This document shows, in pieces, positions 5,795 through 64,000 of a DNA stretch of 64,000 bases. The notes beneath the pieces were generated by a model. It had not been told where the DNA came from. It saw only the letters and a program-made list of their open reading frames with translations, and did no database searches. The position numbers were made by a program, and so were the translations under genes. Source of the DNA: Octopus vulgaris (Eukaryota). How positions within the stretch are numbered: the stretch's first letter is position 1; each line of letters begins with the position of its first letter. The stretch is from NCBI GenBank assembly GCA_951406725.2, contig OX597826.1:24118001-24182000 (forward strand). The letters are read 5' to 3'.

Positions 5795-5999
5795 CTTTAT
5801 TAAAAAGCAGCAAAAAATTGCAAAAACTGTTAGTTTCACGTTCCCATTTGTCAGACAGTTTTGTTTGACGAATGGGAACGTGAAACCCTCAGTAACAGTT
5901 TCTGTGATATTTTCTTGCTTTTTAATAAAGCATATTACTCTACTTCTTGTATTTGAGTACTATCTTTGTCACCTTGTTTCGCATTTATGTGCTTACTCT

Positions 6000-6001
<2 letters not shown>
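5795..6001. mobile_element. Fold-back insert in (TA)n with two decayed hammerhead motifs (Penelope-like/retrozyme type)
   Basis: Inverted arms 5795-5857 and 5862-5930 plus a tail. Plus strand reads tgt TTGACGA atg-ggaa-cgt GAAAC cctca GTA aca; the minus copy has CTGACAA. Confidence 0.6.
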
Positions 6002-6036
<35 letters not shown>

Positions 6037-6229
6037 TTGTTAATCGAAGTATACATTCACTCATATGTTAAATAGAGTGTGAAATCCATGTCATGATTTT
6101 GTCTAAACAGCTATTTTTATTGGACCTAAAATGAATTATGAAATACAATGAAGTAGGGTAACAGTGACCTAGTCATAAATTTAAGACAAACATCTTTGAT
6201 CATTATCGTCATCATCATCATCCTTGATG

Positions 6230-6260
<31 letters not shown>

Positions 6261-6312
6261 TAATACTCAGCATGTGATTGCAACAAACATACAACAAAAG
6301 TAAATAACTGAA

Positions 6313-6348
<36 letters not shown>

Positions 6349-6744
6349 CTGCTGCTGCTTTAGGGAGAAGGAATAAATAGAAGTGAATATCCCCCTCCCC
6401 CCCACTGGTGGTGCCCCAGCATGGCCACAGCATTAAGGTTGAAACATGTAAAAAGATAAAGAGTAGTAGAGTGTAAGTTTCAAATGACCTCTATGTAACT
6501 GCTTTAGTTTGAACATATGATCTCATTTCATGAATCTTGTCATACGAGTGGCATAAATAAATGACCAGGATAAATTAGCATACATTATAGGATAATATAA
6601 ACACTATGAAAATTTCAGATCATGTCCTTTAAAAAAAGCTAACTACATTAAGATTTGTAGCAGATCAACTAATGCCGTATGGTATGTTAAATTGAAGTCA
6701 TTTGTCAAACCTGCATTCAAAAAAATTTGGCAGTCTCTTTCACT

Positions 6745-6953
6745 CTTTTACTTGTTTCAGTCATTTGACTGTCGCCATGCTGCCGCACTGTCTTTAGTCA
6801 AACAATTCGACCCTGGGACTTATTCTTTGTAAGCCTAGTATTTATTCTATCTGTCTCTTTTGCCAGACCACTAAGTTACAGGGATATAAACAAACCAACA
6901 TTGGTTGTGAAGCTATGGCGAGGGTGACACAGTCACACAAATTCATACATATA

Positions 6954-7019
<66 letters not shown>

Positions 7020-7185
7020 TACACAATGGGCTTCTTTCAGTTTCTGTCTACCAAATTCACTAACAAGGCTTTGGTCAGCCCAAGGCTATAGTAGAAGACA
7101 TTGCTCAAGGTGCTATGCAGTGGGACTGAACCCAGAACCATGTATCTGGGAAACAAGCTTCTTGTCACATAGTCACTCCTGCATG
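6745..7185 (-). mobile_element. SINE family A, full length
   Basis: Reverse complement of the family consensus with an expanded internal (TA)n/(TG)n. Confidence 0.8.
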
Positions 7186-7685
7186 TATCTATAAAATAAT
7201 GCATACCAGTCATGTACTAGGGTTGATTAAATTATCAGTTTCCCTCTCCATTCTCTTTTATGTTCATTATTGTTGCGGCTTGTCTGCTAGTGATCATCAT
7301 TATAAACATCAATTTTTGTTTTAGCATCCACATTTCTGTGCTGGTATGGGTCAGAGTTTATTGGGATAGATTTTCTGTGGTGAGTTGTCCCTCCTGTCAC
7401 CAACCTTCACTTGTGTCTGTGCAAGGTAATGTTTCCCCATGACCAGACATGTTTTTGCATTTTGTTCAAAATGAACAACCCTGCTTGTATGACATTGATA
7501 CTCATTTACAACGATCATTTAACGTCAAGACAAGAAGACAGAAATATACATACACTTACATACATGCATACATAGATATATATATGAAGGTGTAGGGCTC
7601 AGTGGTTAGTTCGTCAGTCTCACAATCATGAGGTAGTGAGTTCAATTTCTGGACCAGGCTGTGTGTTGTGTTCTTGAGCAAGACA

Positions 7686-11286: not shown

Positions 11287-12744
11287 CAGCATGTTGTTTC
11301 CAAATTTCTGGTAGAGTGAATTGCATCATGGTGCTATTTTTCTCACAGATGGTTCCCAACTGACCCTACTATACTGTGTTGTTGACAAAATTAAAAACAA
11401 TGTGATTGCGCAAAATTAAAAGTATAAAATGGCAACAATTTACCCATCACACCCTGTATATTATACATATAAAAGTTTATAAATAAATAAATGTGTGCAT
11501 GCTTGTGTGTGTATGTGGATACATATGTGCATACTCACAGACATGCACTTGCTTTTTAGAAAAGAAATTAATAGAAAAGTACTCAATGCATGATGTAGAG
11601 TTTACATTTATTAAAAATCAGTTGACTCTTCACTCCATTGCTACTGAAGAGAAGTGTATTGACAGAGCACCTACTCAGCCACTTCTCATTGATCAAAGTT
11701 ATTCAGCTGATTGAGTATGTAGCTTCTTATGGACACCATTGTCACTTGCTGGATTCCTATGGTGCACAAGCACCCCCAGCTAAATTCATGCATTGGCCTT
11801 AGAATGTTTGGGTGTATGGAAGCTGTCCAGTAGGATTTTGTCTCTAATGTTAACAGCTAGATAATATTTATTACCTTTGGTTGTTTTTATATTAGAAAAA
11901 TTTTTCCATTAGGTACAGCCTGCAGTTTTAGGCTCCATCTAAACATGGAGTGGTTTTGTTGCCTATTTTCCATGTATGTTTCAACCTGTAGTTTTTGATC
12001 TTCCAAATGAATTAGGACAAGGGAGTAAAGTTTTCTTTCTTCTTTGATCTGATCCCTTACTAATAAATATATAATTCTATACTATGCCTTGAGTTTTTTT
12101 TTTGTACAAATGTATCCAGCTTGCCAGCCCTGGTCAGACCATCCAACCCATGCCAGCATGGACAATGGACACTAAATTATGATGATATATATATATATAT
12201 GTCAGTGCAGGCATAGCTGTTTGGATATGGAGAATGTGTTTGTAAGTCCATGTGTATGGTTTTATTCCATGTGTCTTTACAGTTTGAGCTAAAGTAATGT
12301 TTGTTTACATCCTCTGTAAATGTCCTGTAGCTCATTAGTTTTGGAATCTGAAAACCAAAGAAGGACATCTGGCCATAGTAAAACAATCTCAATAGGAATC
12401 TGTTATATGTAGTAGAAGCAGTATCAAATTAAATGTAAATACATTGTTAAAAGGCAAATTTACTGTGGTATCCATCCAAAGATAACTTGTTTTATGGACA
12501 TGCTGTATTGGGTTTTTAAACACATCAGGTCCATGAGAAATGTTATTTCTGGATGAATACCTCAGTAAATTTGCCTTGCAACAATGTATTTATAATATAA
12601 TAAGTATAATATAAAAAAGGCTCCCTCAGTAAGTCTTGCCCAACTTGTGCCAGTGTGAAATAAATGGGAGGTGGAGGGTTGATGGATATGCTATATTAAA
12701 ATGTAGGAACAAAAGATTTTAATTTCTTCTGATGAAACAAAAAG

Positions 12745-13647: not shown

Positions 13648-16112
13648 AGGAAAAAGAGAATGTAGAATAGAGTGAGTGAGAGGGCTTCCCAGTTAGTTTG
13701 AATCTTAGTTTCACTGTTCAGTGAAGTTAGGTAGAGCAATTAATGTTGCCACCTTGCTTCTGATTTGAATGCTGGTGAGGCAGAATAGTTAAGGATTTCT
13801 ACCACACAGTCATTGGGAACTTGGGTTCAATCCCACAGCATGGCATCTTGGGTCAATGTCTTTTACTGTAATTTTGGATCATCCCAAGTTTTTTGAATGA
13901 AACTGAATTGTGACTGAAACAGTTTGGAACCCACTTGTATAGATGATACTGGTACCTCTAAATTCAAAGAACTTGCTCTGGTACATACTACCATTCACTA
14001 ATTCATTGGGTTGGGTGTAGCTGTGTGGTTGGGAAATTTGCTTCCTAATTACATGGTTCCAGGTTCAGTCCACTCCACAACATCTTGGGCAAGTGTTTTC
14101 TGTTATAGACCTGAGCCAACCAAAGCCCTGGATTCGGTAGATGGAAACTGAAAGAAGTCTATCATGTGTGTCTGTGTGTGTCTGCCTTTGTGTGTGTGTG
14201 TGTGTGTGTGTATTTGTTTCTCTTTGTCTTGACAAGCATGATAGTTGTGAGTGTCACTGTCATTCAAGCAGTGTCGTTCATTCCGGATACTCTGCAATTA
14301 CCTTGCTTGGAAACAGATGAGGATTCAAGACAAGAATCCTGCTGTATTAAATCTGTCTCAATAAACCTCTTCTAATCCATGCTAGCATGGGAAAGTAGCT
14401 GTTAAGATGACAATTATGATGATAAGTCCATTGATGGAGCTTTGTTGGAACTAAAAGAAAACCATTTATATTATCAGTATAGAAATTGGTTAGAACCTGT
14501 ACACTAAATGTATCTAACCTGTCAATTTAACAAAACATGAGCCAACAACATAGGCTAGAAATAGCAACGAAACCTCTCTCAAATCATTCTCTCTTTGTTT
14601 GTTGTTGCTTTTGTTGTTGTTTGTTTATTTTTGTTTAATAGAAACAGAAGCACTGACCAATATACAGGATCTAAATTATATTGGCTGAAATAAACATGGA
14701 ATGTTCATTGAAGGAATGCCTTTGATGATAGGTTTACTCATTCAGAGCTTGCCTGGGGCTAAATAACAACTTAACTCACTGCTAAGTTAACATGACTTTA
14801 ATTATGAGAAATAGCAAAAAAAAAAAAAAAATCACAACAGAAAACAAAAGTCATTTTCTTGAAAAGTTAAAAAGAAAAAAATTATGATTAATTATATTTC
14901 TTCTTTAAGATGAAAATAAGAATTCTAGGAAGAATTGTGTTAGGTGAGGCTTTGAAAAAAATGTCTGATTACGAGAGGTAGCTGTTACATTTGTGTTGCA
15001 TCAAACTTCTAACCTGTGTAGCAACTCTGTACTTGAAAGAGCTGAGTAAAAATGATTTAGGTATAATAGGCATATTTATTACCTTTAACTAGTTGGATTT
15101 TTCCACCTTTATATCTCTGTCATGCTATGAAATCAGGTAACAATTAAAAATGAATGGATTTATTTAAAAAAAACACATCAAATGCATCTGTGTTGCTCTC
15201 ATATACACGTTAATTCTAAACTGTGCAGTGTTGGCTGAGGTAGTGAAAAGTGAGGCATGTCAGAGTGTTGTTTGATGAAGAAATAAATATCTTAATGTTT
15301 TGTGCAGCAAAGTTCTTCATTGGCGAGTAAATGAAAACTACCACTAATCTCTTTGATTTCAATTCATTATATTTGCATAACAAATAAAATAAAACTAGAA
15401 AAAAAGAAAAAACAGAATTGTTGGGAAAACTTGTGGTGGTATGCTTCAGCACAAATCTGTAAATAAAATTTGCAAATATGAATAAATTTGTATGCTGTGT
15501 TGAAGACATGATTTCTAATGTTTCTAGCAAGGTAATTTCATTGATGAACAAAAGAAAAAAAAATACTGAAATTCAAATATTAGATGTTGGCATAGTTGCA
15601 TGGTTAAGAACTTTGCTTTGCAACCATGTTATTTTAGGTTCAGTCCCACTGTGTGGCACCTTGAGCAAGTGTCTTCTACTATTGTCCCAGACTGACCAAT
15701 GCCTTTTGAGTGAATGTGGTAAACAGAAACTGTGTGGAAGCCTATCATATATATAAAGATGTATGTATTTGTGCATATATTTCTGTTTGTCTCCTCTCCC
15801 CTGCCACTGCTTGACAACCAGAGTTGGTTTGTTTACATCCCTGTAACTTATTCAATCAGTCTCTTTTGCTGAACTGCTAAGTACCAGATTTCAAAAAATA
15901 TATATAGAAATAAATATATATATACATATATATATAATACAAATAAGAAAATGGAGGAACAGATTCATTCCAATCAACGACTTACAGATATTACCAATTC
16001 ATATTATTTATTTATTAACTACATAAATAGGAACATCCAAATCCAACAAAACAAAACAATATACATCAATATGTAAGATAATAATACCATAAGAATAATA
16101 TACATAAAATGG

Positions 16113-16234
16113 ATCTTACAGCTGTTTCAGCCTGTAGATAAAGGTATCTCATTCTGCCTATATTAGTCAGATGTATTGAGGTAATATGCAGTTAAAAATG
16201 AGTTACTTATATATCTCAAGGCCTCGTCAGAGAT
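16113..16234 (-). ncRNA. Type I hammerhead ribozyme motif with 85-nt stem II extension
   Basis: atct CTGACGA ggcct-[85 nt]-aggct GAAA cagctg TA agat. Stem I atct/agat, stem II ggcct/aggct, palindromic stem III ACAGCTGT, GUA site. Confidence 0.7.
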
Positions 16235-16294
16235 TGTAAAGTACAATTATAAAAATGCAAATATAAATATGAAACAAAATACACATACACAAGA

Positions 16295-16325
<31 letters not shown>

Positions 16326-16918
16326 AGTGTATATTCATATATATATATACATATATATAAGTCTATATATAATAATATACATACACATAAGGTTACAGAT
16401 AATCAAATATACTGGAGTATACATATACATCTACATCAATGGGTACATATATAAAGTTCATTACATTACAAAAACTATTAATATTATTATTATTATTATT
16501 AATAATACCAATATTAGATTATGTGCATTCTGCTATCCACAATGCATAGTAGATGGAAAATACCACATAAAATATAGTATAATATAATATAGTACAATAT
16601 AATATAATAAATTATATATCACATATATAATATAGTATAACATAATATATAGACAGGTGCTTATGAAATATGAATAGCAGAATGCACATAATCTAATATT
16701 GGTATTATTAATAATAATAATAATATTAATAGTTTTGGTAATGTAATGAACTCCGTATATGTACCCATTGATGTGGATGTATATGTATACTCCAGTATAT
16801 TTGATTATATGTAACCTTATGTGTATGTATATTATTATATATATACTTATATATATGTATATATATATATGTATTTTGTTTCATATTTATATTTGCATTT
16901 TTATAATTGTACTTTACA

Positions 16919-17040
16919 ATCTCTGACGAGGCCTTGAGATATATAAGTAACTCATTTTTAACTGCATATTACCTCAATACATCTGACTAATATAGGCAGA
17001 ATGAGATACCTTTATCTACAGGCTGAAACAGCTGTAATAT
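16919..17040 (+). ncRNA. Inverted partner hammerhead motif (stem I weakened, agat>atat)
   Basis: atct CTGACGA ggcct...aggct GAAA cagctg TA atat. Confidence 0.6.
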
Positions 17041-17388
17041 TCATTTTATGTATATTATTCTTATGGTATTATTATCTTACATATTGATGTATATTGTTTT
17101 GTTTTGTTGGATTTGGATGTTCCTATTTATGTAGTTAAATAAATAATATGAATTGGTAATATCTGTAAGTCGTTGATTGGAATGAATCTGTTCCTCCATT
17201 TTCTTATTTGTATTATGAATTTGAGGTAAAATGTTTTACCTTTGCCCATCTAATACAATAAATGAATTAATTGCATTGCAATTATAAGCATTTATGTATT
17301 TGCCATTTGGGTGCTTCACCAGCAGTATTTTGGATAACTGATATCCTATAGTGGGTTACACTCATAACCCCTATCTCACTTTGTACTT

Positions 17389-17442
<54 letters not shown>

Positions 17443-19440: not shown

Positions 19441-22400
19441 GAATATCTGTAGAATAAGTTAGGAATTGCTTTGAATATTTAGCTATCATTTCTGACCTTT
19501 TGAGTTAACCCCCTGCTACAATTGACTTTGTCTTTAATCTATCTAGGGGCAGTAAAATAAGAACTAAGAAAGAATTATCTGAAGGTGATATTTTCTGTAT
19601 ACTCCTTCAAAATGCATGACCTTGCACTTGCCTGTTTTAGAAACCAATGTATATTTAATCCTTGAAATGTATAGAATACAAAAAAAAAAAAAAGGACGAC
19701 ATCATCATGATGCATATTTGGTTCCATATTTCATTGCTCAGAAGTCTTGCTTGTCTGTGAGATAGACTGTAGCAACATGTAATCTCATGATACATAATCC
19801 AGCTCTGTTCTGTTTTCTAACCTAGCTAATTCTGTCTGGCTTTAATAGTATATCTTTCTCTTTGAACTAGACACTGGCTTAGCTTAGTTTTCACAAAAGA
19901 CCAATTGTAGTCAGGTTGAATTCATAAGAATTTTTCATGCTTAGCCATGCAAGCCATGGTTTTCATGCTTTCATTCAAATTTAGAATGTAGGCCATTTAT
20001 AAAGGCACTTCACCACTACCTACACGTGTGTATGTGTGTATGTGTATACATACATGTGCATACATACATATATAGGTATATACATATGTGTGTGTGTGTG
20101 TCAGTTATATCAAAAAACATTACACTCTACTTAGTTTTGCCTGAGAGCTGGCTGTTCATGTATGTAAAATGCAAGGCAAAAACAAAAAGAACTGGCACAC
20201 TGTCAGTTACAACAACAAGTATTCCAGTTGATCTGATCAACGGAACAGCCTGCTCATGAAATGAACTTGCAAGTGGCTGAGCACCCCACAGACATGTGTA
20301 TCCTTAACTTAGTTCTCAGGGAGATTCAGCATAACACAGAGTGTGACAAGGCTGGCCCTTTGAAATACAAGTACAACTAATTTTTGCCAGCTGAGTGAAC
20401 TGGAGCAATATGAAATAAAGTGTCTTGCTCAAGGACATAACATGCCACCAGAAATTGAACTCTTGAACTTATTATTGTGAGCCAAATACCCTAACCACTA
20501 AGCCATGCACCTTTGCTCCAATTCCAGACATATAAGCATAGACATAGCTGTGTGGTTAAGAAGTTTGTTTCTCAATTGCATGGTTTCAAGTTCAGTCCCA
20601 CTGTATGGCAACTTGGGAAAGTATCTTCTACTATAACCCCTGGCTGACCAAAGTGTTGTGAGTGGATTTGGTGGATGGAGACTGAAAGAAGCCCATCATC
20701 AACACTTTCCAGGTAAGGTTTTTTTCCTTTTTCCATTTAATATTTATTCATAGTTTTACCTATTTCATGTTCCAACATTAAAAGTGATTTATTTCACATT
20801 TTTCGAAGGTTCTAAATTTATATGATGCAACCTATACATATATATGTGGACTACCATGTAGGAGAACTGAAATCTACAAGTTGTTTTTCATTCTCACTCT
20901 CTTTATTTTATTCCTTTCTGTTGAAGAGCACAGGTTCAAAACATAAAAGACTTCATTTTTCCCGAGCATCAAACTATTACACTTGCTTGTTGTTCATACA
21001 TCTGTCTTCATCTTTTGTTTTTCTAAATTTCAACTGTGTATGTATATATATAGAGAGAGAGAGGGGGGAGAGAGAGAGAAGCCTTGTTAAGCCAAGAGAA
21101 ATCATAGTTGTGGCTGATGCCGGTGTCATATGGTGAGTACCTGTGCTGGTGGAACATAAGAACACCTGTATTGATGTCATGTAAAAAGCACCCATTACAG
21201 CCTTGGAGTGGTTGGTGTTAAGAAGAGCATCCAGTTGTAGAAACCATGCCAAATCAGTCTGAAACTTGGTGCAGCTTTCCGGCTTATGAGTTCCAGTCAA
21301 ACCATTTGATACATGCCAACATGGAAAGTAAACGCTAAACAATGATGATGATGAAATGTGAGAAGAAGTTTGCCTCCCGACAACATGGTTTTGGGTTCAG
21401 CCCCATTGCATCACACCTTGTGGAAGTGTCTTCTGCTGTAGCCTCATGCTGACCAAAGCCTTCTGTGGATTTGGTAGATGGAAAATTAAAGAAACCTGTC
21501 GTGTGTGTGGTTATGTCTTTGTGTTTCATCCTCCAAGAAGAGCCTAGCCATTTCGCCATAGAAAATCTGCTGCTGTGAATTCCTTTTGAAGCATGGAAAA
21601 ATGGATATTGACCCTTTAGCATTTAAACCAACTATATCCAACCAAAATATTCTACCCTTTTTTTTATGCTCAACCTGGCCAGATGTGGTTTCTGACACTA
21701 GCCTTTCAATATCATTCTAAAAATAAATTGTTACCTTATGAAAATCTCAAAGCTATGAGATAATGCTTGATTAATTCAAAACTATGTGAATAAATAAGTA
21801 TTACTTTGACAGATAATGGGTTAAATTGATAATGATGATGATATGTATCTTGATGCCTAATAAATTTACAATGCCAAAGAACAGCATAAGAAGGTCCACA
21901 GAAACTGTAGCACTGGCAGGCAGATAGCTACACTTTGAGACAACTGTAGGAGATCTTTTATTGGTACTCTATGCCCCACATGGAGTTAAAGGATTAAAAA
22001 GAAGACTAAGTTACAGTTGATATAGCTTTGGTACTAAAGTGTTAAGTGTCTTGGTCATGAACAGAACAAGATGTCAATAGCCAGTAGTGAACCATGAAAT
22101 AATTCAGTAGTTGTCTGCTTTATAGCTTATTCAGTCAGACATGACTCTCTTCACTCAAAGTGATTTAAATAGAATTCATTAGAGGTACTGGTTCTTTATC
22201 CCCTTCTACTGCTCTGCTTTTGTTGTATAGGATATAGTAATACCAACTCAATTATATACTTGTAATAGATTATTTGAATGCTCACTGAATTTTCACTTTT
22301 CCATGCTTGCTTGCCTCAGACAAAACTACATTGGATGACTGATGTATGTCCTTTATGATGCTGCCAATTCTTACTAGTTTCCAAGCAAAGTAATAATTTC

Positions 22401-38045: not shown

Positions 38046-38072
38046 TATATATATATATATATTATATATATA

Positions 38073-40565: not shown

Positions 40566-41712
40566 TATATACATATATATGTGGTGGTGGGAAGTATAAG
40601 AAATAGCTATGTTACTTTGTTACATAGATTGAAACGAGAACCCAGGGATGTGTGATTGTTATTCATTTTATCCCAATGAGATAACAAAAATTGCACAAAA
40701 TCCCTCCAAATTTAAAGGTGTGCTTTCTTTTCTTCTTCCTTCTTTTGACCCCATTTTTATTTATTTATATATTTATTTGTTCATGTAGGTCAAGGATACA
40801 TCTGTTTTGTTAATATAACAACCCTCCTTCCTCCCACCCTCTCTCTCTCTTGCCCTAAACCCCTAAATATTTTGTTTCATAACAATTGCCATTTCGTAAA
40901 CTTGTGTTACTTCGTTAAGCTCCTTTCACTCGACCTAGTCATCAACAGCAGCAGTAGGGGCAATGATTGCATCACCACTATCACCATCATCATGATCACT
41001 GTCATCAGCTACAACATAGTTGCTGATGAGCAGAAATCAAGCTGTAAAATCTGGCAGGCACTTAGGTATGATTTCTCGATGGGGTGGGTGGTGGTGGTGG
41101 TTCTCCTATTCTTTTACTTATGGCCATGCTGAAGTACTGCCTTGAAGGGTTTTAGTCAAACAATTTGACCCCTGGACTTTTTGTTTTTTAAAGCCTAGTA
41201 TTTATTCTATCAGCCTCTTTTGCTGAACTGCTAAATTGTGGGAATGTAAACGTGCCAACACCAGTTATGATGAGGTGGGGGACAAACACAGGCACAGACA
41301 CTCAAATATATATCATTATCATCATCATCATCGTTTAACTTCTGCTTTCCATGCTAGCATGAGTTGGACATATGACTGAGGGCTTCACCAGGCTCCAATC
41401 TTGATCTGGCAGAGTTTCTACAGCTTGATGCCCTTCCTAACACCAACCACTCCAAGAGTGTAATGGGTGCTTTTACATGCCACCGGCACGGGGCCAGTCA
41501 GGTGGCACTGGCAACGACCTCGCTCAAATCTTTACACATGCCACCGGCACGGGTGCCAGTAAGGCGATTCTGGTAATGATCACACTCGAATGGTGTCTTT
41601 TACGTGCCACCGGCACGGAGGCCAGATAGCCGCTCTGGCAACGACCACGCTCAGGTGGTGCTCTTCATGCTTGATATATATATATATATATATATATTTA
41701 TTATATAGAAGG

Positions 41713-41763
41713 AGCTTCTACAGGACTAGAACTGTTTCATTCAAGAGAAATCTTCAGGAAGCT
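41713..41763 (-). ncRNA. Type I hammerhead ribozyme motif
   Basis: Identical reverse complement of 44004-44054. Confidence 0.65.
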
Positions 41764-42349
41764 AGTTAACAAGAATTGTATTGGCATTTATACATTTAGG
41801 CAGGTTTAAAGGGGTGTTGGTGGGGGACTTTTTGGGGGTAGGCATAGCGCAAAATATCATACTTGGGGAAGTGGTCAAGGAGTCAGTGTTAAATTAGATA
41901 GAAGAATAAATAAAAAAATAAATAAAAAAATATATATATAAAAAAAAGGGGAATAGAGTTTTAGGTAAATAAGGAGATTCTCACTTATACCTATGCACAT
42001 ATGTATACATATATACACACACATACAAACATATATACATATACATACACACATACATACACACACATATATATACATATATATACACTTACACATACAT
42101 ATACATATCTACACATACACATATATGTATACATACACACACTCACATGCATACACGTATACACACATGTATGTATACACACACACGACCACACATACAT
42201 ATACACACAGAAAGATATATATACACATACACACACATACTCACATACACGCATACACACACATATCCACACACACACATGCACACACAGCACACTAGTC
42301 CCTATATACACATATATACACATACACACATATATACACACACATACAT

Positions 42350-42391
<42 letters not shown>

Positions 42392-42828
42392 GTGTACCTA
42401 TGCATACCTACACATACACACATATATATACACATACAAATACAGACCCATTCCCTAATTTTAATTTTATTATCTTCATTTATTACTTTTGTTATCTTTG
42501 GCTGCTTGGTCACAAACATCTTGGCTATGACAGCCAGTCCATTTATCTGTCTACTGGAAAACAAGCACTCATTCACTCACGCACACTCTTTAGCACGTAC
42601 ACTCACTCATTCATACACTCATACACATACACGCACGCACGCGTTATATTCATACATACATACATCTACATACATTCACGTATATACACATACATCTACA
42701 TACATTCACGTATATACACATACGTACGCGTACCTACAGATTCATGTCTACACTCTTAGAAGGCTAGTCTATACATATACACCAATAAATATAAATACAC
42801 ACACATACATATACACCTACATACAAAT

Positions 42829-42869
<41 letters not shown>

Positions 42870-43084
42870 TATTCACATATATATACACATATATATATAT
42901 ACATACATACATATACATACACATATACACACACGTACATATATATACACACATACACATACATACATATACACACATACACATACATACGTATACATAC
43001 ATACATACATCCATACATCCATACATACATTTATACACATACACACACCCACACGTATACATATACATACATATATATACGCGC

Positions 43085-43125
<41 letters not shown>

Positions 43126-43779
43126 TACACACACATACATATACATACATACATATACAAATATACGCACACACATACATACATACTCATATACACATAC
43201 ACGCACATACACATGTACATGCGTACCCATACACACACACACACACGCGCGCATCCATATATACACATAAGTACACACATGCGTAAAAGTATACATATAT
43301 CTATGCTTACACATACACACACACGCGCCTCCTTATATTCATACTTACATGCATACTCAAAAAATAAGTAAATAGTAAAATATATATACGCGCAGTTATT
43401 CATACATGCATACTCAAAAAATAAAATAAATATTAAGTATATGTACGTGCAGTTACCTATTATATAGACGGATACATACATATAAACTTACACACATATA
43501 TATATATATACATATATATACATACATATATACACATATATATACATATACATATATATACATATATATATGTATACACACACACACATACACATATATA
43601 TATATATACATACTTACACACATGTACAAATATATACACACATAGATAACTCTACGTACATACATATACATAAACACACGAGCGTACGCGTATATGTACA
43701 TATACACATACACATACACACGCATATATATACATACATACATACACATACACACATATATACACACACACACATATAC

Positions 43780-43842
<63 letters not shown>

Positions 43843-44003
43843 TATTTATTTTTTTATTTATTCTTCTATCTAATTTAACACTGACTCCTTGACCACTCCC
43901 CCAAGTATGATATTTTGCGCTATGCCTACCCCCAAAAAGTCCCCCACCAACACCCCTTTAAACCTGCCTAAATGTATAAATGCCAATACAATTCTTGTTA
44001 ACT

Positions 44004-44054
44004 AGCTTCCTGAAGATTTCTCTTGAATGAAACAGTTCTAGTCCTGTAGAAGCT
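44004..44054 (+). ncRNA. Type I hammerhead ribozyme motif
   Basis: agcttc CTGAAGA t-ttc-tctt-gaa-t GAA acag-ttctagtc-ctgt A gaagct. Perfect 6-bp stem I, 4-bp stem III and GUA site; first stem II pair is U.U. Confidence 0.7.
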
Positions 44055-44193
44055 CCTTCTATATAATAAATTAATTTTACTCTGCTATGTATTGAGTACC
44101 TTATTTACTGTGGTTAACCCCGAATCAACCCGGGACCTACATATATATATATATATATATATATATGCTTGATATATATATATATATATATAT

Positions 44194-45420: not shown

Positions 45421-45664
45421 ACAGCTAGAAGAAAATAGAGGGGATCCAGAGGTAGTATACATCAACTGTTAGACATTATATTATGTCTAACAGTTGATGC
45501 TTACTACCTCTGGATACCCTACAATTTTTTACCCTCGCCATTTATTACGCTCCGTAGTATAATTACCATGCAATAATCAACACTTGGATATTCTACCAGC
45601 AGTATATTGGATAGATATTATCCCTTAGTTGGTTGGATTCACATCCTCTAACTCTCTTTGAATG

Positions 45665-45668
<4 letters not shown>
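45421..45668. repeat. Short fold-back (45439-45520) plus tail related to the 17217-17390 tail
   Basis: Inverted arms; shared accagcagtat(a/t)ttggata block; (TA)n flanks. Confidence 0.7.
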
Positions 45669-45695: not shown

Positions 45696-45857
45696 ATGAA
45701 AATAGTAATGCAATACGAGAGTATTGCTTTCCAGTAAAGGATAGCCCGTAAGGGTAAAATTATACATATAAAAGTAAATAAATGGCACAACGAAGCACCG
45801 ATATTTTCAGTAAATATCAGTGTTTCGTTGTGCCATTTATTTACTTTTATATGTATA
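45695..45857. repeat. Short fold-back (45761-45806 / 45812-45857) with tail on the left
   Basis: 46-bp inverted arms between (TA)n runs. Confidence 0.75.
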
Positions 45858-48124: not shown

Positions 48125-48163
<39 letters not shown>

Positions 48164-48166
<3 letters not shown>

Positions 48167-48505
48167 ATTATAATTTAGGGTATCTAAGAGATACCACCAT
48201 GCTGGAAATAGCAGCCAAAACTTGACTAAACCACATTAAATGTTCATAGAGTACCAGGAGAGAAGACAAAAGGACAAAATAAACTAGCAAAAGAATAGTT
48301 TATTTTGCCTCTTTGTCTTCTCTCTTGGTGCTGTATGAATATTTAATGTGGTTTTAGAGTCAAGTTTTGGCTATTTCCAGCATGGTGTTATCTCTTAGAT
48401 ACCTTAAATTATAATTTTAATAATTATTAGCCTGTGAAGGTTTATATTCCCATGCTGGCCAGCTGATAAGATCGGTATTTAAATGCCGATCTTATCCTTA
48501 TTTAT
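48164..48505. repeat. Fold-back insert (arms 48164-48286 / 48296-48418) with tail containing a 32-bp hairpin
   Basis: ~120-bp imperfect inverted arms; gataagatcggtattt/aaatgccgatcttatc at 48465-48496. Confidence 0.8.
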
Positions 48506-50263: not shown

Positions 50264-52992
50264 ATTAATAATCCTTTCTACTATAGACAGAAGGTGTGAA
50301 ATTTTGTGGGAGGGTCTAGTTGATTACATCAATCCCACTGTTTCACTGGTACTTAATTTATCGACCCCTAATTGATGAAAAGCAAAGTCGACCTCGACGG
50401 AATTAGAACTCAAAATATAACAAACACCTGATGGCTGGTATATTTTTAATAAATTTTGAAAATGAATTGAAACAAGGCAAAGGTGAGTGTATGCCAACAG
50501 AAATATTATAACTAAAGGTTTAAATCACTGCAACTACTATCACTGATACCACCACCACTACTACTATGACTAGAGCACCACCATCTACTTCTACTACTAC
50601 TACTACTACTACAACCACCACTACCACTACTATTACTGCTACTACAACTACTGCTGCTACTTTCTACCCACCCCTATTTTACAATGAATCTCTGTTAGTT
50701 TCAGTTATGGGTATTCAACTGTTTGATAACCTTAATTACAAAGCTTATTCAGCTGAAGTGTGGCTGAGTATTCCACAAACATGTGTGTCCCCACTCCCTT
50801 AATGTTATTTTCAGGCTGACTCAGTGTGACAGTTTACAAAGGCTGGACCTTTGAAATTGTTGTCAAACAGTGGTGGGGGACAAACACATACATGGACACA
50901 TACATAGATATATACGTGCATATATGACAGGCTTCTTTCAGTTTCCATCTACCAAATCCACTGACAAGGCTTTGGTCGACCCGAGACTATACTAGAAGAC
51001 ACTAGCCCATGGTGCCATGCTGTGGGACTCTTACCGCATAGCTATGCCTCTGTGTGTGTGTGTGTGTGGTGCCTCTTCATATGTTGTTTTAATGTGGCAC
51101 TGTTTGACAAGCAGAGTTATTGACTTATGTCCTCATGACTTAGCAGTCTGATACAAACTGATAAAATAAATAGCAGACTTCAAAGAAAAGGTTCTTATTT
51201 CTTTATTGCCCACAAGGGGGACAAAGAAGGACAGACAAAGGGATTTAGTCGATTATATCGACCCCTGTGCATAACTGGTACTTAATTTATCAATCCCGAA
51301 AGGATGAAAGGCAAAGTTGACCTCGGCGGAATTTGAACTCAGAACGTAACAGCAGACAAAATACCTATTTCTTTACTACCCACAAGGGGCTAAACATAGA
51401 GTGGACAAACAAGGACAGACAAAGGGATTAAGTTGATTACATTGACACCAGTGCTAACTGGTATTTAATTTATCGACCCCGAAAGGATGAAAGGCAGAGT
51501 CAACCTCGGCGGAATTTGAACTCATAACGTAATGGCAGACGAAATACCGCTAAGCATTTCGCCTGGTGTGCCAATGTTTCTGTCAGCTCGCCTTCAAAGA
51601 AAAGCTTCTGGGGTCATTTTGATTGACTAAACCTTACGCAGTTTAGGCCACAGCACGGCCACAGTTCCAAGCTAACATACAGAGCAATGAAAGCATCAAC
51701 TGAAATATGACTACTAAAAAAACAAACAAACAGCATAATGCAAACATCAATATGAAAAGAAGAAAAATAAACAACTAAAAAAAAACACTATGAAATATGA
51801 ATGTATATTATCTTACTCATTTCTGCATCATCATCATTGCTTTGTTTGTTTTTCTATGCTTGTATTGGTTGAGTGAATTTGTTGCATTGCTGTGTTAAAA
51901 ACTACCGCCTTTATTGTTGTATATTCTTTTGTTCTTTGAGTCAGCTGACTGCAGCCATGCTTGATGGGTTTTAGTCAAACAAACCGACCCTGGGACTTGC
52001 TTTTTCCTTTTTAAGCCTAGTACTTATTTTATTGGACTCTTTTTCTGAACTGCTAAGTTATGGGGAAGTGAACACCAACGTTAGTTGTCAAGTGGTGTTG
52101 GTGGGTAAAAGTGCCGACACAAAGACACACACACATAAGTATATATACGTATATACATACATACATGGCAGGCTTCTTTCAGTTTCTGTCTACCGAATCC
52201 ACTCACAAGACTTTGGTTAGCCTGAGGCTATAGTAGAAGTTACTTGCCCAAGGTGTCACACAGTGGGACTGAAACTGAAATCTTGTGGTTGGGAAGTCAG
52301 CTTCTTACCACACAACCACACCTTTCATTTTTTTCTTTACATTTTCACCTGGATGCGTTCCTAAATGGCCAGTCTCTTTACAGCATAGCCTGGGTCCATT
52401 CTCAGGTAAAATCCTTTGTATCAGTGGTTCCCAACCATCTTTTAATCCATCAACCCTATTGATTCCTGTTTTTCTTGGGAAGGTGCGGTGGGGTGGGGGC
52501 TCATACCCATTCAATTCTTTTTACTCGTTTACTTGTTTCAGTCATTTGACTGCGGCCATGCTGGAGCACTGCCTTAAAGAATTTTTTAGTCAAAGAAATT
52601 GACCCCAGGACTTATATTTTGTAAGCTTAATACTTATTGTATCAATCGCTTTTGCCAAACCGCTGAATTATGGGGACAAAAACACACCAACATTGGCTGT
52701 GAAGTGATGGCAGTGTTGGGGAGGCAAACACATACACTGCCAGATCTGACTGGGCCTGACGAAGCCTTCCAGCTTCACAGACCCCAGTTGAACCGTCCAA
52801 CCCATGCTAGCATGGAAAGTGGACGCTAAATGATGATGATGATGATGATGATGATATATAAGTTCAGCAGAATTTAGATTCAAATGAATATGGTACTTAA
52901 GTTAGATACACCAGAATTTTGTATGGTATTATCCATATAAATCTATGGGGTGATTATAATCAAAATAAGCAACAAGAATAACTTCGGTAATT

Positions 52993-53076
52993 TGGTACAA
53001 TCGTTTCACGCTACATCATTTTATTAAATATTGTAAGTATTACAACAGTTTTAAAATGTTGAGCAATCATCAGCCA
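52993..53076 (-). ncRNA. Hammerhead motif with extended stem II (element ~52860-53128, same family as 61.3 kb)
   Basis: tgg CTGATGA ttgct-[49 nt]-agcgt GAAA cgattg TA cca; the downstream tail aligns with 61875-61960. Confidence 0.6.
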
Positions 53077-53538
53077 TTTATAGAGATTTTCTATTAATAC
53101 ATAATTTTCATATTAATTGATAACATTATATATATATATATCCTTCTCCTCCCCTTCCTTCTTCTCCTCTCCTTCTTTCTCCTCTCCCTCCTCCTCCTCC
53201 CCCTCCCCCTCTCCCCTCCTCTCTTTTATCTCCCCCTCTCTCCCCCACACCACACTACACTACACCATACGACATTACACATCACATCATACATACATAC
53301 ACACGTCCAAACCACCAGCCCTCTTCCACATGCACATACATACTCTCTTATGCACACACGCACCTTCAGGTTGGAGTGAGGTCACTTGACCCTGTTATCT
53401 CCCCTACTATCCCTCTAGCGTCTAACGTCTGACCTCTAACGTTTGACCTCCGATCTCTGACTTCTGAAATCAGAACGCCATGTTGGATCGTTAGCCCCTA
53501 CACGCAATTTTTTTCTCTCCTTGTTTCTTTTCTGTGTA

Positions 53539-53576
53539 TCTTTCTGTCGAAGAGCGTAGGCTCGAAACGTAAAAGA
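53539..53576 (+). ncRNA. Minimal hammerhead-like motif with variant core
   Basis: tcttt CTGTCGA a gagc-gtag-gctc GAAA cg TA aaaga. Stem I tcttt/aaaga, stem II gagc/gctc, palindromic ACGT stem III. Confidence 0.55.
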
Positions 53577-53701
53577 CTTGTTTTATTTCTATTCCTGAGC
53601 GCCATACTAATACATTATTTGTTTGTACTCCACCTGCCTTCGTCTTTTGTTTATTTTCGTAAACCTGCCTTCGTCTTTTGTTTGTTTTCGTAAACCTTCC
53701 G

Positions 53702-53739
<38 letters not shown>

Positions 53740-54211
53740 GACAGGCTTCTTTCAGTTTTTATTTATCAAATCCACTCACTTGGTTGGTCCAAGGCAACAG
53801 TAGAAGATATTTGCCCAAGATGCTACTTATATTTTTATGATGAAATATTATTAGGAATTGTATAAAAATTTGTTGCAATATTTTGTGTATTGTACAAGTA
53901 TAATCCGTTTATTGCACGTAAATTTTAACAAAATCTTAAATGGGCCCCTAAGGGCCATATGAACCATGGTTGAGGACCACTGTTTTATATTCTGTATCAG
54001 TTTCTCTTCGGAGTAGACATTGGGTGTGTCACTGAGAAACTTGCTTCTCCACCATTTAGTTTCAAGTTCAGTCCTACTGTGCAACACTTTGGGGCAAGTG
54101 TCTCTTAACTATAGCTCTGGGCTGACCAAAGCCTAGTAAGTGAATTTGGCAGAAGGAGACCGTGTGATAGTCTGATGTGTGTGTGTATATATATATATAT
54201 ATGTGTGTGTG

Positions 54212-54681
54212 TTTAAATAGAGGTTGAAATAACTACCTTAAGGGATAGAAAGTATCCAATGAATTACTGGTTTGTTACCTATTATTTTGTTGTGAATAAT
54301 AATGTCCTATAGTAATAGATTTAAGTATAAAACTTTGTTCATAAATATTCAAATTAAAATCTAGAATAAGGAGAAGGAGTGTTAGTATAATTTATTAACT
54401 GCAAAAATTCAACATGTTCCTTTACATCTGTTTCAATATTGCCTTAATGAATTAAATTCCAGTAATTAAATCTTTTTTGGGGGGGGTGGGGGAATCTTGT
54501 TATTGGGGTAAAAGTAAAAAAGATATATTGTTAGGTTATTAACATGTAATTTTTCCAAACATCTCAAAAAACTCCTCTGAATAGATTTCCCCCGCAAAAT
54601 GTTTTAATTACTGGAATTTAATTAATTTGGGCAATATTGAAACAACTGTAAGGGAACATGTTGAATTTGTTCAGTTAATAA
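54212..54681. repeat. Older fold-back (arms ~54392-54497 / ~54583-54681) with decayed hammerhead remnant
   Basis: Imperfect inverted arms; GAAAC-aact-GTA and GAAAC-agat-GTA halves present, CUGANGA half degenerate. Confidence 0.55.
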
Positions 54682-61197: not shown

Positions 61198-61282
<85 letters not shown>

Positions 61283-61283
<1 letters not shown>

Positions 61284-61988
61284 CAAGAAAAAAGCAACAA
61301 GAATGGATTAGTTTTTCAGTACAATTGTTTCATACGAAGAACAGCTTTATTAAAAGCTGCAAATATTGCAGCAAATACAAGTGTCCCGTACTCATCAGCC
61401 AAAACACATATGAGTTCTCCAAGCATCCTAGGGGGGTGAGGCTACAGTTATGAAGTATCGAAGATAGTTCTATAAAAAGCAAATTTAGATTGTAAGCAGA
61501 CTTCCAAAGTTCTCTAATGATCCACAGTCTTATAACAAGCTTTAAAAAAGCTTGTTAGCTTCACAGAAAAGGTAAATCCATCCATAATGTAGGTGCAATT
61601 ACCGGAGATATGAGGAGATATTTCATACTCACAGACGATGAATCCATCCATGATTAATCCATAATAAGGTGGGTATAATTTCCTGATATATGATAAGATA
61701 CTTGTCACACTTCTGTTCAATTCACAAAACTGCTATGTTAGAATTATAATGGCTGAAGGAATTATGTGGAGCATTGAAAAACCGCCCGCAATATTTGCAG
61801 CTTTTAATAAAGCTGTTCTTCGTATGAAACAATTGTACTGAAAAACTAATCCATTCTTGTTGCTTTTTTCTTGTCACCCCACATTATTTTATGGTTAATA
61901 CCATATAGATTTCTGGTGCATCTAAGTTAAGTACCGCATTCATGTGAATTCAATAGAACTCACTTGAATCTTAATTGCTTTTACTACA
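61283..61988. mobile_element. Fold-back element (arms 61283-61369 / 61788-61874, tail to 61988) with hammerhead
   Basis: 87-bp inverted arms with no mismatch seen; (TA)n flanks. Confidence 0.85.
61313..61404 (-). ncRNA. Type I hammerhead ribozyme motif with 50-nt branched stem II extension
   Basis: ttttgg CTGATGA gtacg-[50 nt]-cgtat GAAA caattg TA ctgaaa. Perfect core, palindromic ACAATTGT stem III, GUA site. Confidence 0.75.
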
Positions 61989-62858
61989 TATATATATATT
62001 TTTATATATATATATACTTGACGGGCTTCTTTCAGTTTCCGTCTACTGAATCCACTCACAAGGCTTTGGTTGGCCCAGTGCTATAGTAGAAGACACTTGT
62101 TCAAGGTGCCACACAGTGGAACTGAATCCAGAACCATGTGGTTGAGGAGCAAGCTTCTTACCACAGAGCCACGCCAGCGCCTTCTGGAAAACACTAGCAA
62201 AATATGTGCAATTTTCAGAAAGTTATAAAGAAACAAAGTTGGTGAGAGGCTTCTATTCTAACCCATATCTATACAACCATGAAGTATATATACCCCATGG
62301 CTTAGGATATATATATATATATATATATCATCATCATCATCATCATCATCATCGTTTAACGTCCGTTTTCCGCGCTAGCACGGGTTGGACGGTTTCGACT
62401 GGGGTCTGGGGAGCTCGGGACTGCCCCAGGCTCCAGTCTAGTCTGGCAGTGTTTCTACAGCTGGATGCCCTTCCTAACGCCAACCACTCCGCGAGTGTAG
62501 TGGGTGTTTTTTACGTGCCACCTGCACAGGTGCCAGAGGGGTCTGGCATCGGCCACGTTCGGATGGTGCTTTTTATGTGGGGGGGGTGCAGAAATATAGG
62601 GGAGCACCAGTGGGGAGGGGTGGTTCAGAGAAATGATGACAGGTTCTAGGCAAGTAGAACGTAGGATATCGAGAGAGGGGTAATGCATGGTGAAATAGCG
62701 TATTGAAGAGGGGGGTTCGAAGAGTAGACACCTATAATGGTGGTGGGAGAAGCGACATCCGGTATAGATGGAGCAAAATATAGAGATATCCGGTATTGGT
62801 GGTGGGCAGGGCGGGTGCACCGCGAAGATACGAAGTTTGATTTTAGACGAATGAAGAT

Positions 62859-62901
<43 letters not shown>

Positions 62902-63332
62902 CTGTCGATCTTGCCTTTCTGTACATAAACAACTTGACTGGTTGTCACTTTTAATTGTATGCAAAACCATACAAAAATGATAACGATCTTCACTCCTCAT
63001 TAACTTTTCCCACTCAGCTGAGATACTTCACACCACACTTTCATTTGAGATCCTATCTAATTGTTTCGGAAACTTTCACCCACCCAATATGTAGCAATTA
63101 TGTGCTGTGTCCGCTCTCATTTTCTCTCGCAATCATTGACTAAAATCGTTCATTCACCTTTCGGCTTACTGATAGCCTGTCTTTATGAATTGTAGTGGTT
63201 CCCCCATCGCTATTGACTATCAGTATTTTCAGTCGTTCTCGCTGTACTTCTTTGAATCACAACATGGCAAACAAAGTATTGCTGTGCGTATCTATATGCA
63301 TGGATATGTATACACATATATACAGATAATAA

Positions 63333-63362
63333 CTAGCAGAGATACCCGGCCTTGCTCGGGGT
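63333..63362 (-). mobile_element. Helitron 3'-end remnant
   Basis: cccgagcaaggccggg hairpin followed by tatctctgCTAG|T on the minus strand, similar to 4908-4935. Confidence 0.55.
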
Positions 63363-63384
63363 TAAAATGGCATAGATTTTTATT

Positions 63385-63666
63385 GCTTTACTTGTTTCTG
63401 TCATGTGATTGAGGCCATGCTGGAGCACCGCTGTTGGTCAAAGAAATCAACCACAGGATTTATTCTTTGTAAGCCTAGTACTGATTCTGTCAGAGTCTTT
63501 TTACCAAACCGCTTAAGTTACAGGAATGTAAACACATTAGTTGTCAAGCAGTGGTGGGGGTACAAGCACAAGACACAGGCACACACATACACTTATATAC
63601 GACAGTCTTCTTTCAGTTTCCGAGTACGAAATCCACTCGCAAGGTTTTGGTCGGCCTGAGGCTATA
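63385..63666 (-). mobile_element. SINE family A, cut at a TA run by the right-edge fold-back
   Basis: Matches the consensus up to ggctata. Confidence 0.75.
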
Positions 63667-63773
63667 TATATATATATATGCTTTCGGTGCGAATAGCTTA
63701 ATTATACGGTGCTGTATTTTACAATCCTATAAATAATAATAATGGTATTTTTATACAAACTTAAAGCTTATGC

Positions 63774-64000
63774 CGTTCACCATGCAATGACTAAGGAAAA
63801 TAGTCTAATAACGGGGCATATAAGCCCTCGACAGAAAAAAAGAAGGCTTTTCCATCCGCGTAGGGCGCGAACCCACACCCCTTTGTTAACATGACTAAGT
63901 GTGTTACCTTTACACACGGATGGGAAAGCCTTCTTTTTTCTGTCGAGGGCTTATATGCCCCGTTATTAGACTATTTTCCTTAGTCATTGCAAGGTGAACG
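63774..64000. repeat. Long hairpin element, ~78-bp outer arms (may extend beyond the window)
   Basis: 63774-63851 is the near-perfect reverse complement of 63924-64000. Confidence 0.85.
63852..63923 (-). pseudogene. 72-nt tRNA-like cloverleaf (non-canonical) forming the cap of the hairpin
   Basis: Acceptor ccatccg/cggatgg, D arm gtgt-aaaggta-acac, T arm gtggg-ttcgcgc-cctac; T7 run 10 nt downstream. Confidence 0.5.

Follow-up and report, generated by a model that had tools for sequence, protein, structure and literature searches.

A 64,000-nucleotide (nt) stretch of the Octopus vulgaris genome (NCBI GenBank assembly GCA_951406725.2, contig OX597826.1, positions 24,118,001 to 24,182,000 of the forward strand), referred to below as the window, contains recurrent fold-back inserts that occupy (TA)n microsatellites, several of which carry hammerhead ribozyme motifs. 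These inserts are very probably the 3' stumps of several families of endonuclease-bearing Penelope-like elements (PLEs), mainly of the Hydra clade, that entered (TA)n repeats with heavy 5' truncation. Their anatomy supports this: copies of a 3' end stand head to head, one stopping short and the other running through a tail, and hammerheads lie in the arms. The original prediction, made from the sequence alone, had described hammerhead-bearing retroelement pieces related to PLEs and preferring TA repeats, and both the PLE anatomy and the matches to Hydra elements support it. Its further proposal of a distinct non-autonomous system is unsupported, as a Hydra endonuclease remnant lies at 11.6 kb and the same fold-backs occur elsewhere in families that bear open reading frames (ORFs).

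The class, the layout and the TA target of the inserts are already in print. PLE insertions are strongly 5'-truncated, often have an adjacent inverted truncated copy, may have a tail at either end and show a (TA)n bias, and octopus Naiad and Hydra families are listed with a (TA)n target (Craig et al. 2021, PMC8557442). Minimal hammerheads on opposite strands, at distances of 100-700 bp, have been reported, with most motifs read as truncated PLEs (Cervera and de la Pena 2014, PMC4209133), and inverted pseudo-long terminal repeats (pLTRs) have been described that meet in palindromic junctions and of which one bears a tail (Arkhipova et al. 2013, PMC3846280).

Layout and TA context of the inserts

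Self-BLAST of the window, which has 37% GC and many short interspersed nuclear elements (SINEs) and microsatellites, returned 11 fold-backs and two single arms at the places where about 13 inserts had been reported. The inserts, named below by their position in kb (Table 1), include the two that had been called single-armed, at 52.9 and 53.2-53.7 kb (hereafter 53.5 kb). A copy at 20.9 kb and an endonuclease-bearing insert at 11.6-12.05 kb had been overlooked. Arm identity, gaps excluded, ranges from 88% to 100% across the 11 fold-backs, which suggests insertions of unequal age. Such head-to-head fold-backs represent the inverted or partial-tandem, 5'-truncated pLTR copies of endonuclease-bearing PLEs.

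The (TA)n insertion that characterises the Hydra clade is seen in nine of the 11 fold-backs, where one alignment-defined arm end lies no more than 11 nt from a (TA)≥4 tract, a count to be read with the caveat that TA is self-complementary and can drag an alignment end into the tract; 5.8% of the window bases lie inside or within 11 nt of such tracts. Nine inserts have a tail of 65-175 nt on one side, the other arm running on through it; tails bounded by a (TA)≥4 tract measure 66-176 nt. One-sided tails are another feature of endonuclease-bearing PLEs, for which 30-40 nt are usually quoted, against 65-175 nt here. Because tail ends were defined by the nearest following TA tract, finding TA beside them is circular. 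The common layout that had been proposed, (TA)n - truncated inverted arm - full arm with tail - (TA)n, thus holds for the TA end in nine of 11 fold-backs and for the tail in nine inserts, and fails at 39.5 kb, which is tail-less, at 54.2 kb, whose right side adjoins a SINE, and at 48.2 kb, whose tail closes in a degenerate TA run. Nor is the tail-less arm in every case the shorter one at its 5' end.

Together, the 13 inserts span 7,668 nt, which is 12% of the window, or about 9% without the interior of the 41.7 kb insert. The predicted rate of roughly one insert per 5 kb is ordinary for octopus, because PLEs, in 190 families, occupy 6.83% of the O. vulgaris genome (PMC13282606 supplement); recent copies of nearly full length are known in octopus for 30 Penelope families (PMC13282606). 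Further fold-backs outside the original list lie at 12436-12592, 25083-25635, 45873-45953 and 58015-58504. Those at 12.4, 25.1 and 58.0 kb are not beside TA tracts, the last being a flank duplicated in inverted orientation around a SINE, so TA adjacency is not shared by every hairpin.

Hammerheads, tail hairpin and Hydra endonuclease

Hammerhead motifs in the window exceed those in shuffled sequence. A strict descriptor gave two matches (16230-, 61398-) against a shuffle mean of 0.05, none of 60 shuffles reaching two. A relaxed core added 5865+ and 53544+, making four matches against 0.18 (0/60 shuffles), and the same core with looser stems had a shuffle mean of 1.08, with 1 of 60 shuffles reaching four. 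A descriptor tuned post hoc to the published Hydra table gave five (16230-, 41757-, 44010+, 53073-, 61398-) against 0.005 (0/200). Every descriptor match falls inside a listed insert. Seven inserts had been said to hold hammerheads; six have complete cores, at 5.8 (decayed), 15.9, 41.7, 52.9, 53.5 (variant) and 61.3 kb, and the seventh has only a half core. Half cores are found at 39.5 kb (5' half), at 48.2 kb (decayed 5' half) and at 63.7 kb (without GAAA). The type I pLTR hammerhead of endonuclease-bearing PLEs is therefore present in six of the 13 listed inserts and absent or partial in seven. Rfam returned no hammerhead or twister among the 150 of 272 window matches listed, which held only chance microRNA (miRNA)-type hairpins, nor in five separately rescanned stretches, to which the inserts at 5.8, 15.9, 37.8, 39.5, 54.2 and 61.3 kb did not belong.

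The claim of several unrelated families was overstated. The 52.9 and 61.3 kb inserts are 70% alike, and by eye their stem II covaries, with two double changes in four pairs (G-C to A-U, U-A to G-C) around a long insert. Of the three outcomes that had been named as refuting the prediction (no excess of motifs over shuffles, no stem covariation, arms that are TIRs), none is seen for the hammerhead-bearing inserts. The 53.5 and 20.9 kb copies are 69% alike and both have U at core position 6 (U6), the 45.4 kb tail is 64% alike to that at 15.9 kb, and the 5.8 and 41.7 kb tails are related (0/1000 shuffles as good). The U6-family pattern had no match in the metagenome and viral contigs scanned, so U6 as a family consensus rests on two copies. 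In the 63.7 kb fold-back (63774-64000), both arms have a U6-type 5' core and a 4-bp stem II, without GAAA; this may be a second U6 family or a degenerate ribozyme.

Published Hydra PLEs (PMC8557442; Hydra-2_Amil, Penelope-1_NV, Penelope-13_HM, Hydra-1_Obim) share with the window inserts the (TA)n preference, the inverted 5'-truncated copy, a hammerhead close to the 3' end, in which one additional nucleotide flanks stem II and the 4-bp stem III is nearly palindromic, and the endonuclease C-terminus. By eye, the cores at 5.8, 15.9, 41.7, 52.9 and 61.3 kb fit the Hydra hammerhead table. Hydra-1_Obim itself does not represent the window families: its hammerhead row differs, and six window words had no relevant match in the available supplement. 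At 15.9, 52.9 and 61.3 kb, loop II, of 3-10 nt in the published Hydra rows, is part of a helix II whose extension reaches about 50-87 nt. Long loops have some precedent: PMC8557442 points out half cores separated by 35-50 nt and, in plants, two PLE motifs whose loops measure 28-34 nt. In contrast, the 53.5 kb hammerhead resembles the minimal ones of Poseidon, Neptune and Cercyon (PMC4209133) in the extra nucleotide lying between 9 and 10.1, the G10.1-C11.1 pair and the palindromic 2-bp stem III, and dispersed singles and opposite-strand pairs are known there; the 53.5 and 20.9 kb copies differ from them by U6. A weak natural A6C core has been described, in an article in whose available text 'A6U' has 0 occurrences (Perreault et al. 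2011, PMC3088659).

The tails at 5.8, 11.6 and 41.7 kb share a hairpin, which by eye is also found at the 3' end of the Hydra-2_Amil and Hydra-2_Ajap consensus sequences. It is bulged, with an outer stem RCUC/GAGY, a short inner stem and a 2-3 nt bulge, is followed by AC, and lies about 45-55 nt after the hammerhead GAAAC. Metagenome contigs were scanned (22 of 64 parts) with a pattern of GAAAC followed by this hairpin, CUGANGA not being part of it, and 120 loci were found. CUGANGA stands exactly 12 nt before GAAAC in 66 of the 98 matches with at least 30 nt upstream. A hammerhead core occurs in nine of the 18 locus clusters (107 loci), which are nine families sharing the tail hairpin; the remaining 13 loci are apparently chance matches. 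Among the 71 loci with at least 150 nt upstream, 40 have a tail-less inverted copy and an anatomy like that of the window inserts. In 39 of these 40 fold-backs the tail-less copy ends 2-8 nt before the CTCT of the hairpin; in the window it ends 2-7 nt before it at 5.8 kb and 8 nt before it at 41.7 kb.

Two hairpin pairs left free by the pattern are kept in 105/107 and 101/107 core-bearing loci, compared with 6/12 and 3/12 of the other matches (one of the 13 was unparsed, and the families are not independent). In 12 representatives, 93.6% of cells pair against at most 55% in slid controls, six of the eight pairs being largely fixed by the search pattern; the outer pair reads G-C in the nine families of the metagenome, A-U in the window's three copies. 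A covariance model built from 11 metagenome loci, with window sequence excluded, placed 5854-5966 (E 1.9e-6) and 43999-44105 (E 1.2e-5) first, which gives the 5.8 and 41.7 kb inserts 3'-end homology to Hydra elements; the E-values are rough, and the loci were picked by a pattern drawn partly from 41.7 kb. The top nine of its 20 window matches are inserts, the seven after the first two being mostly not significant.

More generally, folding of the initial 36 nt of the nine window tails surpasses that of shuffles (0/500) and of random windows from the same copies (10/500), although single tails are weak and the hairpins differ among tails. The word TTTTAC stands at tail starts in six of nine with one mismatch (0/300 in both controls), a post hoc observation that overlaps in part with the hairpin foot. 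By itself, TT(A/G)AGTAC lacks specificity, with 14 window matches against a shuffle mean of 5, several of them in another repeat. AATAAA stands just before the hairpin in all three window copies (5.8, 11.6 and 41.7 kb) and in none of the 107 metagenome loci. At 52.9 and 61.3 kb (52996-53073 and 61320-61398, both -), AATAAA lies within the extended helix II, 24-26 nt before the predicted cleavage site.

A hidden Markov model (HMM) from 124 Hydra-type proteins, run against the six frames of the window, had one match, 12053-11838 on the minus strand (independent E-value 4.9e-7; best reversed control 3.2). It covers HMM positions 551-630 of 636, and tblastn also found the remnant, which a scan of the window for short protein motifs had missed at 11.9 kb. 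This is the C-terminal endonuclease typical of Hydra, with CxxC and CxH motifs, partly decayed, around the conserved E and N, and without CCHH; the window holds it at 11.6-12.05 kb only. AATAAA and the tail hairpin follow 237 nt after the remnant and so link the hairpin with a coding PLE of this genome. Of the Penelope ORFs that the prediction had proposed to look for, this endonuclease C-terminus, in an unlisted insert, was found, but no such reverse transcriptase (RT) remnant. Pfam had no match on 18 read-through frames; this is uninformative, because Pfam failed to match RT or GIY-YIG in intact Hydra ORFs as well.

Four of the 107 metagenome loci have an ORF with Hydra motifs (L006, L010, L020, L060). 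The ORFs of L006 (647-2770, 707 aa stop to stop) and L010 (169-2424, 751 aa) appear intact and have the RWK, DKT and CxCX5C motifs, parts that are truncated away in the window inserts. In L010, a partial tandem, the ORF lies downstream of hammerhead and tail, and the hammerhead equals the Penelope-1_NV row. The ORF stops 114-217 nt before GAAAC in three loci (114 nt in L006). L020 and L060 belong to the two largest families of short copies, so the short fold-backs there are truncated copies of ORF-bearing families. The L006 and L010 ORFs have 640 relatives at E<=1e-10, with one close relative of L006 labelled Oculina patagonica; another, labelled with a pipefish genus, suggests a Hydra host range wider than published.

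Membership of the Hydra clade is well supported for the 5.8, 41.7 and 11.6 kb inserts and likely for those at 15.9, 52.9 and 61.3 kb. It is unlikely for 53.5/20.9 kb, whose fold is the minimal one of Poseidon/Neptune-type elements. Naiad elements are marked by an N-terminal endonuclease and by the lack of a canonical hammerhead, and a Naiad origin is possible for the inserts without a hammerhead; a comparison with octopus Naiad 3' ends, by eye only and with no alignment run, noticed no likeness.

Individual inserts and their surroundings

The large inserts offer further detail. At 41.7 kb, the SINE flank on the left (41365-41673) is repeated inverted on the right (44200-44508) at 99.4%, as young as the arms, and is followed at 44506-44650 by a short re-inversion around another TA tract. 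The inverted flank suggests that priming took place from the same flank on each of two chromatids, or that the template was switched at TA hairpins; it may also be an artefact of assembly. At 61.3 kb, the spacer beside the tailed arm (61717-61787, +) resembles the sequence upstream of the 52.9 kb hammerhead on the other strand, including a degenerate 5' core (5/1000 shuffles), and is closer to it than to the upstream sequence of its own partner arm, despite 100% identical arms. Two subfamilies may have been joined into a chimera here, or the element may carry an older inverted copy. A frame at 61.4-61.8 kb had one match among 1.84 billion proteins, an HYR-repeat protein judged spurious, and Atlas scores below 0.8.

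At 15.9 kb, loop II (16930-17025, + and its inverted copy), which folds as an extended helix, has by eye donor-like and acceptor-like words about 75 nt apart, and a retained intron within this ribozyme loop is possible. The tails at 15.9 kb (17296-17383) and 45.4 kb (45585-45660) show several synonymous-looking third-position differences in one frame, as would be expected if the tail were the start of an ORF; this frame had no protein relative among 43 candidates.

A Tc1/mariner element at 38070-39312, with 33-nt terminal inverted repeats (TIRs) and a transposase helix-turn-helix remnant (38755-39153), occupies the TA tract at which the 37.8 kb tail ends. Decayed non-LTR retrotransposons lie at 8.6-11.3 kb (+; RVT_1 match 10078-10491) and 7.7-8.1 kb (-). 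The protein closest to the RT frame of the long interspersed nuclear element (LINE) in the window is from O. vulgaris, 84% over 41% of the query, and the other 46 matches reach at most 61%.

Table 1 Inserts in the window, with arms, tails and ribozyme features (window positions in nt).
Insert	Positions	Strand	Arms and tail	Hammerhead and other features
5.8 kb	5792..6001	+	fold-back between (TA)n tracts, self-BLAST 5788-5935, arms 88%; tail-less arm ~5794-5860 (sense on -), tailed arm 5861-5930, tail to 6001	Hydra-type, core 5865-5871 with C3U decay, predicted cleavage after 5894; AATAAA 5924-5929; tail hairpin 5937-5960
11.6-12.05 kb	11545..12065 (ends approximate)	-	single arm	decayed Hydra-clade GIY-YIG C-terminus 12053-11838, interrupted by several stops and followed by AATAAA and tail hairpin 11601-11579
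15.9 kb	15937..17391		large fold-back 15934-17216, arms 98%: ~15934-16535 (-), 16675-17216 (+); tail 17217-17391	cores 16230 (-, all three stems) and 16923 (+, stem I mutated); palindromic stem III; 95 nt between core and GAAA
20.9 kb	20874..21028	+	decayed member of the 53.5 kb family	core 20918 with U6
37.8 kb	37800..38043	+	spacerless fold-back 37800-37967 (96%), tail 37968-38043	no hammerhead
39.5 kb	39507..39755		symmetrical tail-less fold-back (self-BLAST 39507-39763, 88%)	5' half of core only (39544-); class uncertain
41.7 kb	41696..44140		arms 41696-41940 (-), 43827-44071 (+), 99%; interior 1.9 kb, CA/TA-rich; tail 44072-44140	two intact Hydra-type hammerheads, cores 41757-, 44010+, predicted cleavage nt 41719, 44048; tail hairpin 44079-44099
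45.4 kb	45422..45667	+	short fold-back 45432-45528 (89%), tail 45529-45667	no hammerhead
45.7 kb	45696..45853	-	tail 45696-45760, short fold-back 45761-45853 (self-BLAST to 45857, 94%)	no hammerhead
48.2 kb	48163..48503	+	fold-back 48160-48422 (92%), tail 48423-48503	decayed 5' half core and hairpin in tail; class uncertain
52.9 kb	52856..53126	-	single tailed arm; family shared with 61.3 kb	core 53073, predicted cleavage nt 52996; extended helix II enclosing AATAAA
53.5 kb	53142..53702	+	single arm	minimal, core 53544-53550 with U6; extra A before 4-bp stem II, 2-bp palindromic stem III; predicted cleavage after 53571
54.2 kb	54203..54681		arms 54392-54477, 54596-54681 (88%); possible tail at left, right end adjoins SINE	no hammerhead; weakest member
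61.3 kb	61284..61987		arms 61283-61369 (-), 61788-61874 (+), 100% identical; tail 61875-61987	complete in tail-less copy only, core 61398-, predicted cleavage nt 61320; extended helix II with AATAAA
63.7 kb	63680..64000		tail 63680-63773, fold-back 63774-64000 (97%) cut by window end	see text

Origin of the fold-backs

In the mechanism that we favour, the enzyme would nick both strands of a TA tract and make two complementary DNAs (cDNAs). A distal start would give the tailed arm, and a proximal start at the foot of the hairpin the tail-less one. Both cDNAs would stall early, often near the 5' edge of the hammerhead, and would be joined via short self-complementary AT-rich ends, with the product TA - tail-less arm - junction - arm - tail - TA. 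A single priming event would leave single arms, as at 52.9, 53.5, 11.6 and 20.9 kb. The enzyme would act as a dimer that primes both target strands from two start sites, the fold-back being its frozen product. The hammerhead would ride in the pLTR and probably process tandem parent transcripts, as a dimer or with the assistance of protein; it would not be required for insertion, and the stumps would mostly be dead. Hammerhead dimer cleavage has been summarised by Weinberg et al. 2019 (PMC6765202).

Priming at two sites is the probable source of the fold-backs. The PLE of an anole, PAc, of the Poseidon clade, cuts and extends both strands at AT-rich DNA, begins reverse transcription at two internal stem-loop sites with the tail between them, and encodes a protein predicted to dimerise (Frangieh et al. 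2024, PMC11167929). The parallels that we propose are the two internal RT starts bounding the tail, the stem-loop start, the use of both strands and the AT-rich target; PAc belongs to another clade, and the accessible text discusses neither an inverted insertion product nor a hairpin kept across phyla. Its hammerhead mutants still insert in vitro, so, by analogy, the ribozyme is probably not the driver of insertion. In the window, the 61.3 kb insert has the 5' half of the ribozyme in the tail-less copy alone and the tail in the other copy alone. In the two largest metagenome families (loci L003-L119), most junctions are 15-35 nt ahead of GAAAC, close to a palindrome of TTAA type at the 5' edge of the ribozyme, which suggests a stall or annealing site there.

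We tentatively extend this to a joint reading, for which the odds are somewhat less than even. The tail hairpin would be a cis signal that sets the proximal RT start and has been conserved between cnidarian-type and octopus Hydra elements; the fold-backs would result from two-strand priming by a dimeric enzyme; and in the octopus families, hammerheads whose helix II is extended by 50-87 nt, and others with a natural U6 core, would still be functional while escaping standard descriptors and Rfam. In the literature searched, outside which lay Repbase/Dfam, most subscription papers and some supplements, we found no account of these families or of octopus ribozymes, nor of a tail hairpin at a fixed distance from the tail-less end, twin priming for PLE fold-backs, or hammerheads with an extended helix II or U6.

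Several observations speak against the reading of the inserts as PLE stumps. The core letters of the hairpin were set by the search pattern, and the 107 loci amount to nine families. A (TA)≥4 tract lies within 120 nt downstream in only 10 of 122 metagenome matches, whose flanks are more often rich in ATT/TAA. The covariance model places the 15.9, 53.5, 61.3 and 11.6 kb inserts at E 0.08-1.8, and 52.9 kb is absent from its 20 matches. Layout is the only ground for assigning the seven inserts that lack a complete hammerhead, except at 45.4 kb, where the tail adds to it, and the 11.6 kb insert has no recognisable hammerhead left. Spacerless or near-spacerless palindromic junctions occur at 5.8, 37.8, 45.4 and 45.7 kb, as a cDNA snapping back on itself would leave them. 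No listed insert keeps an ORF, the Hydra HMM finding in the whole window only 11.6-12.05 kb, and the 15.9, 53.5 and 61.3 kb inserts preserve about 400 nt upstream of the core yet have no Hydra ORF. These three families must therefore have long 3' untranslated regions (UTRs), belong to another PLE clade or be non-coding.

The last of these options, that at least one of the 15.9/45.4, 52.9/61.3 and 53.5/20.9 kb families is a non-autonomous PLE derivative whose non-coding RNA retains pLTR, hammerhead and tail and is moved in trans by the enzyme of an autonomous PLE, is compatible with the PLE origin of the inserts, and we consider it somewhat unlikely. The missing endonuclease in the three inserts fits it, as does the 61.3 kb spacer, for which no protein relative turned up and part of which is like the sequence upstream at 52.9 kb. 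Moreover, pLTRs by themselves are able to mobilise unrelated sequence in trans (PMC3846280), and a pLTR origin is given for retrozymes (preprint 10.64898/2026.07.22.740005). However, the HMM behind the absent endonuclease covers Hydra proteins only, short truncated copies are usual for autonomous PLEs (PMC8557442, PMC4209133), octopus Naiad consensus sequences have, by eye, AT-rich 3' UTRs near 1 kb (PMC8557442), and the 5' ends of the inserts are ragged, not fixed.

Snap-back, in which one cDNA folds back and copies itself or self-primes on an antisense template, concerns the mechanism; as the source of the fold-backs it is unlikely, and it may occur together with two-site priming. Besides the palindromic junctions, the reach of the arms in 34 metagenome fold-backs largely accords with it, being equal in 19 and greater for the tailed arm in 10, and self-priming has been proposed in PMC3846280. 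It offers no route, however, to a tail-less arm that has 5' sequence which the tailed arm lacks, as seen at 61.3 kb and in the other five of the 34 (in one by 228 nt), and the anole enzyme extends both strands (PMC11167929).

Non-LTR retrozymes (PMC7229834; preprint 10.64898/2026.07.22.740005), head-to-tail repeats that hammerheads cut into monomers which circularise and reinsert, are a very improbable source: they too are non-coding, PLE-related sequences with type I hammerheads, and dispersed monomers of retrozyme families exist (same preprint), but they are defined by tandem units each with a hammerhead, of which the window has none. This largely removes the retrozyme reading for the window. 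All four core pairs less than 3 kb apart lie on opposite strands, and the head-to-head geometry with a one-sided tail is the signature of PLE insertion.

Least probable of all is that the arms are TIRs of DNA transposons (miniature inverted-repeat transposable elements, MITEs) inserted at TA, as inverted arms in TA context and the true Tc1/mariner in a TA tract might suggest: the arms of the hammerhead-bearing inserts are not terminal, symmetrical TIRs, one arm sits 65-175 nt inside the end in the nine tailed inserts, arm lengths vary from 48 to 600 nt, strand-specific hammerheads in the arms point outward, and the same ends lie behind RT-endonuclease ORFs in other animals. For the symmetrical, tail-less 39.5 kb insert alone, the only one with inverted repeats at both termini, a MITE is a less remote though still unlikely prospect, perhaps also for 48.2 and 54.2 kb.

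For genome annotation, PLE stumps of this kind mimic miRNA hairpins and MITEs. The mechanism behind inverted PLE copies and tails was named as open by Craig et al. 2021, and a hairpin that predicts the tail-less end within a few bases (39/40), beside the intact Hydra ORFs of L006 and L010, makes the question testable with the assay published for the anole element. If active, the long-helix-II and U6 hammerheads would widen the natural hammerhead consensus, and counts of cephalopod ribozymes made by descriptor would be too low.

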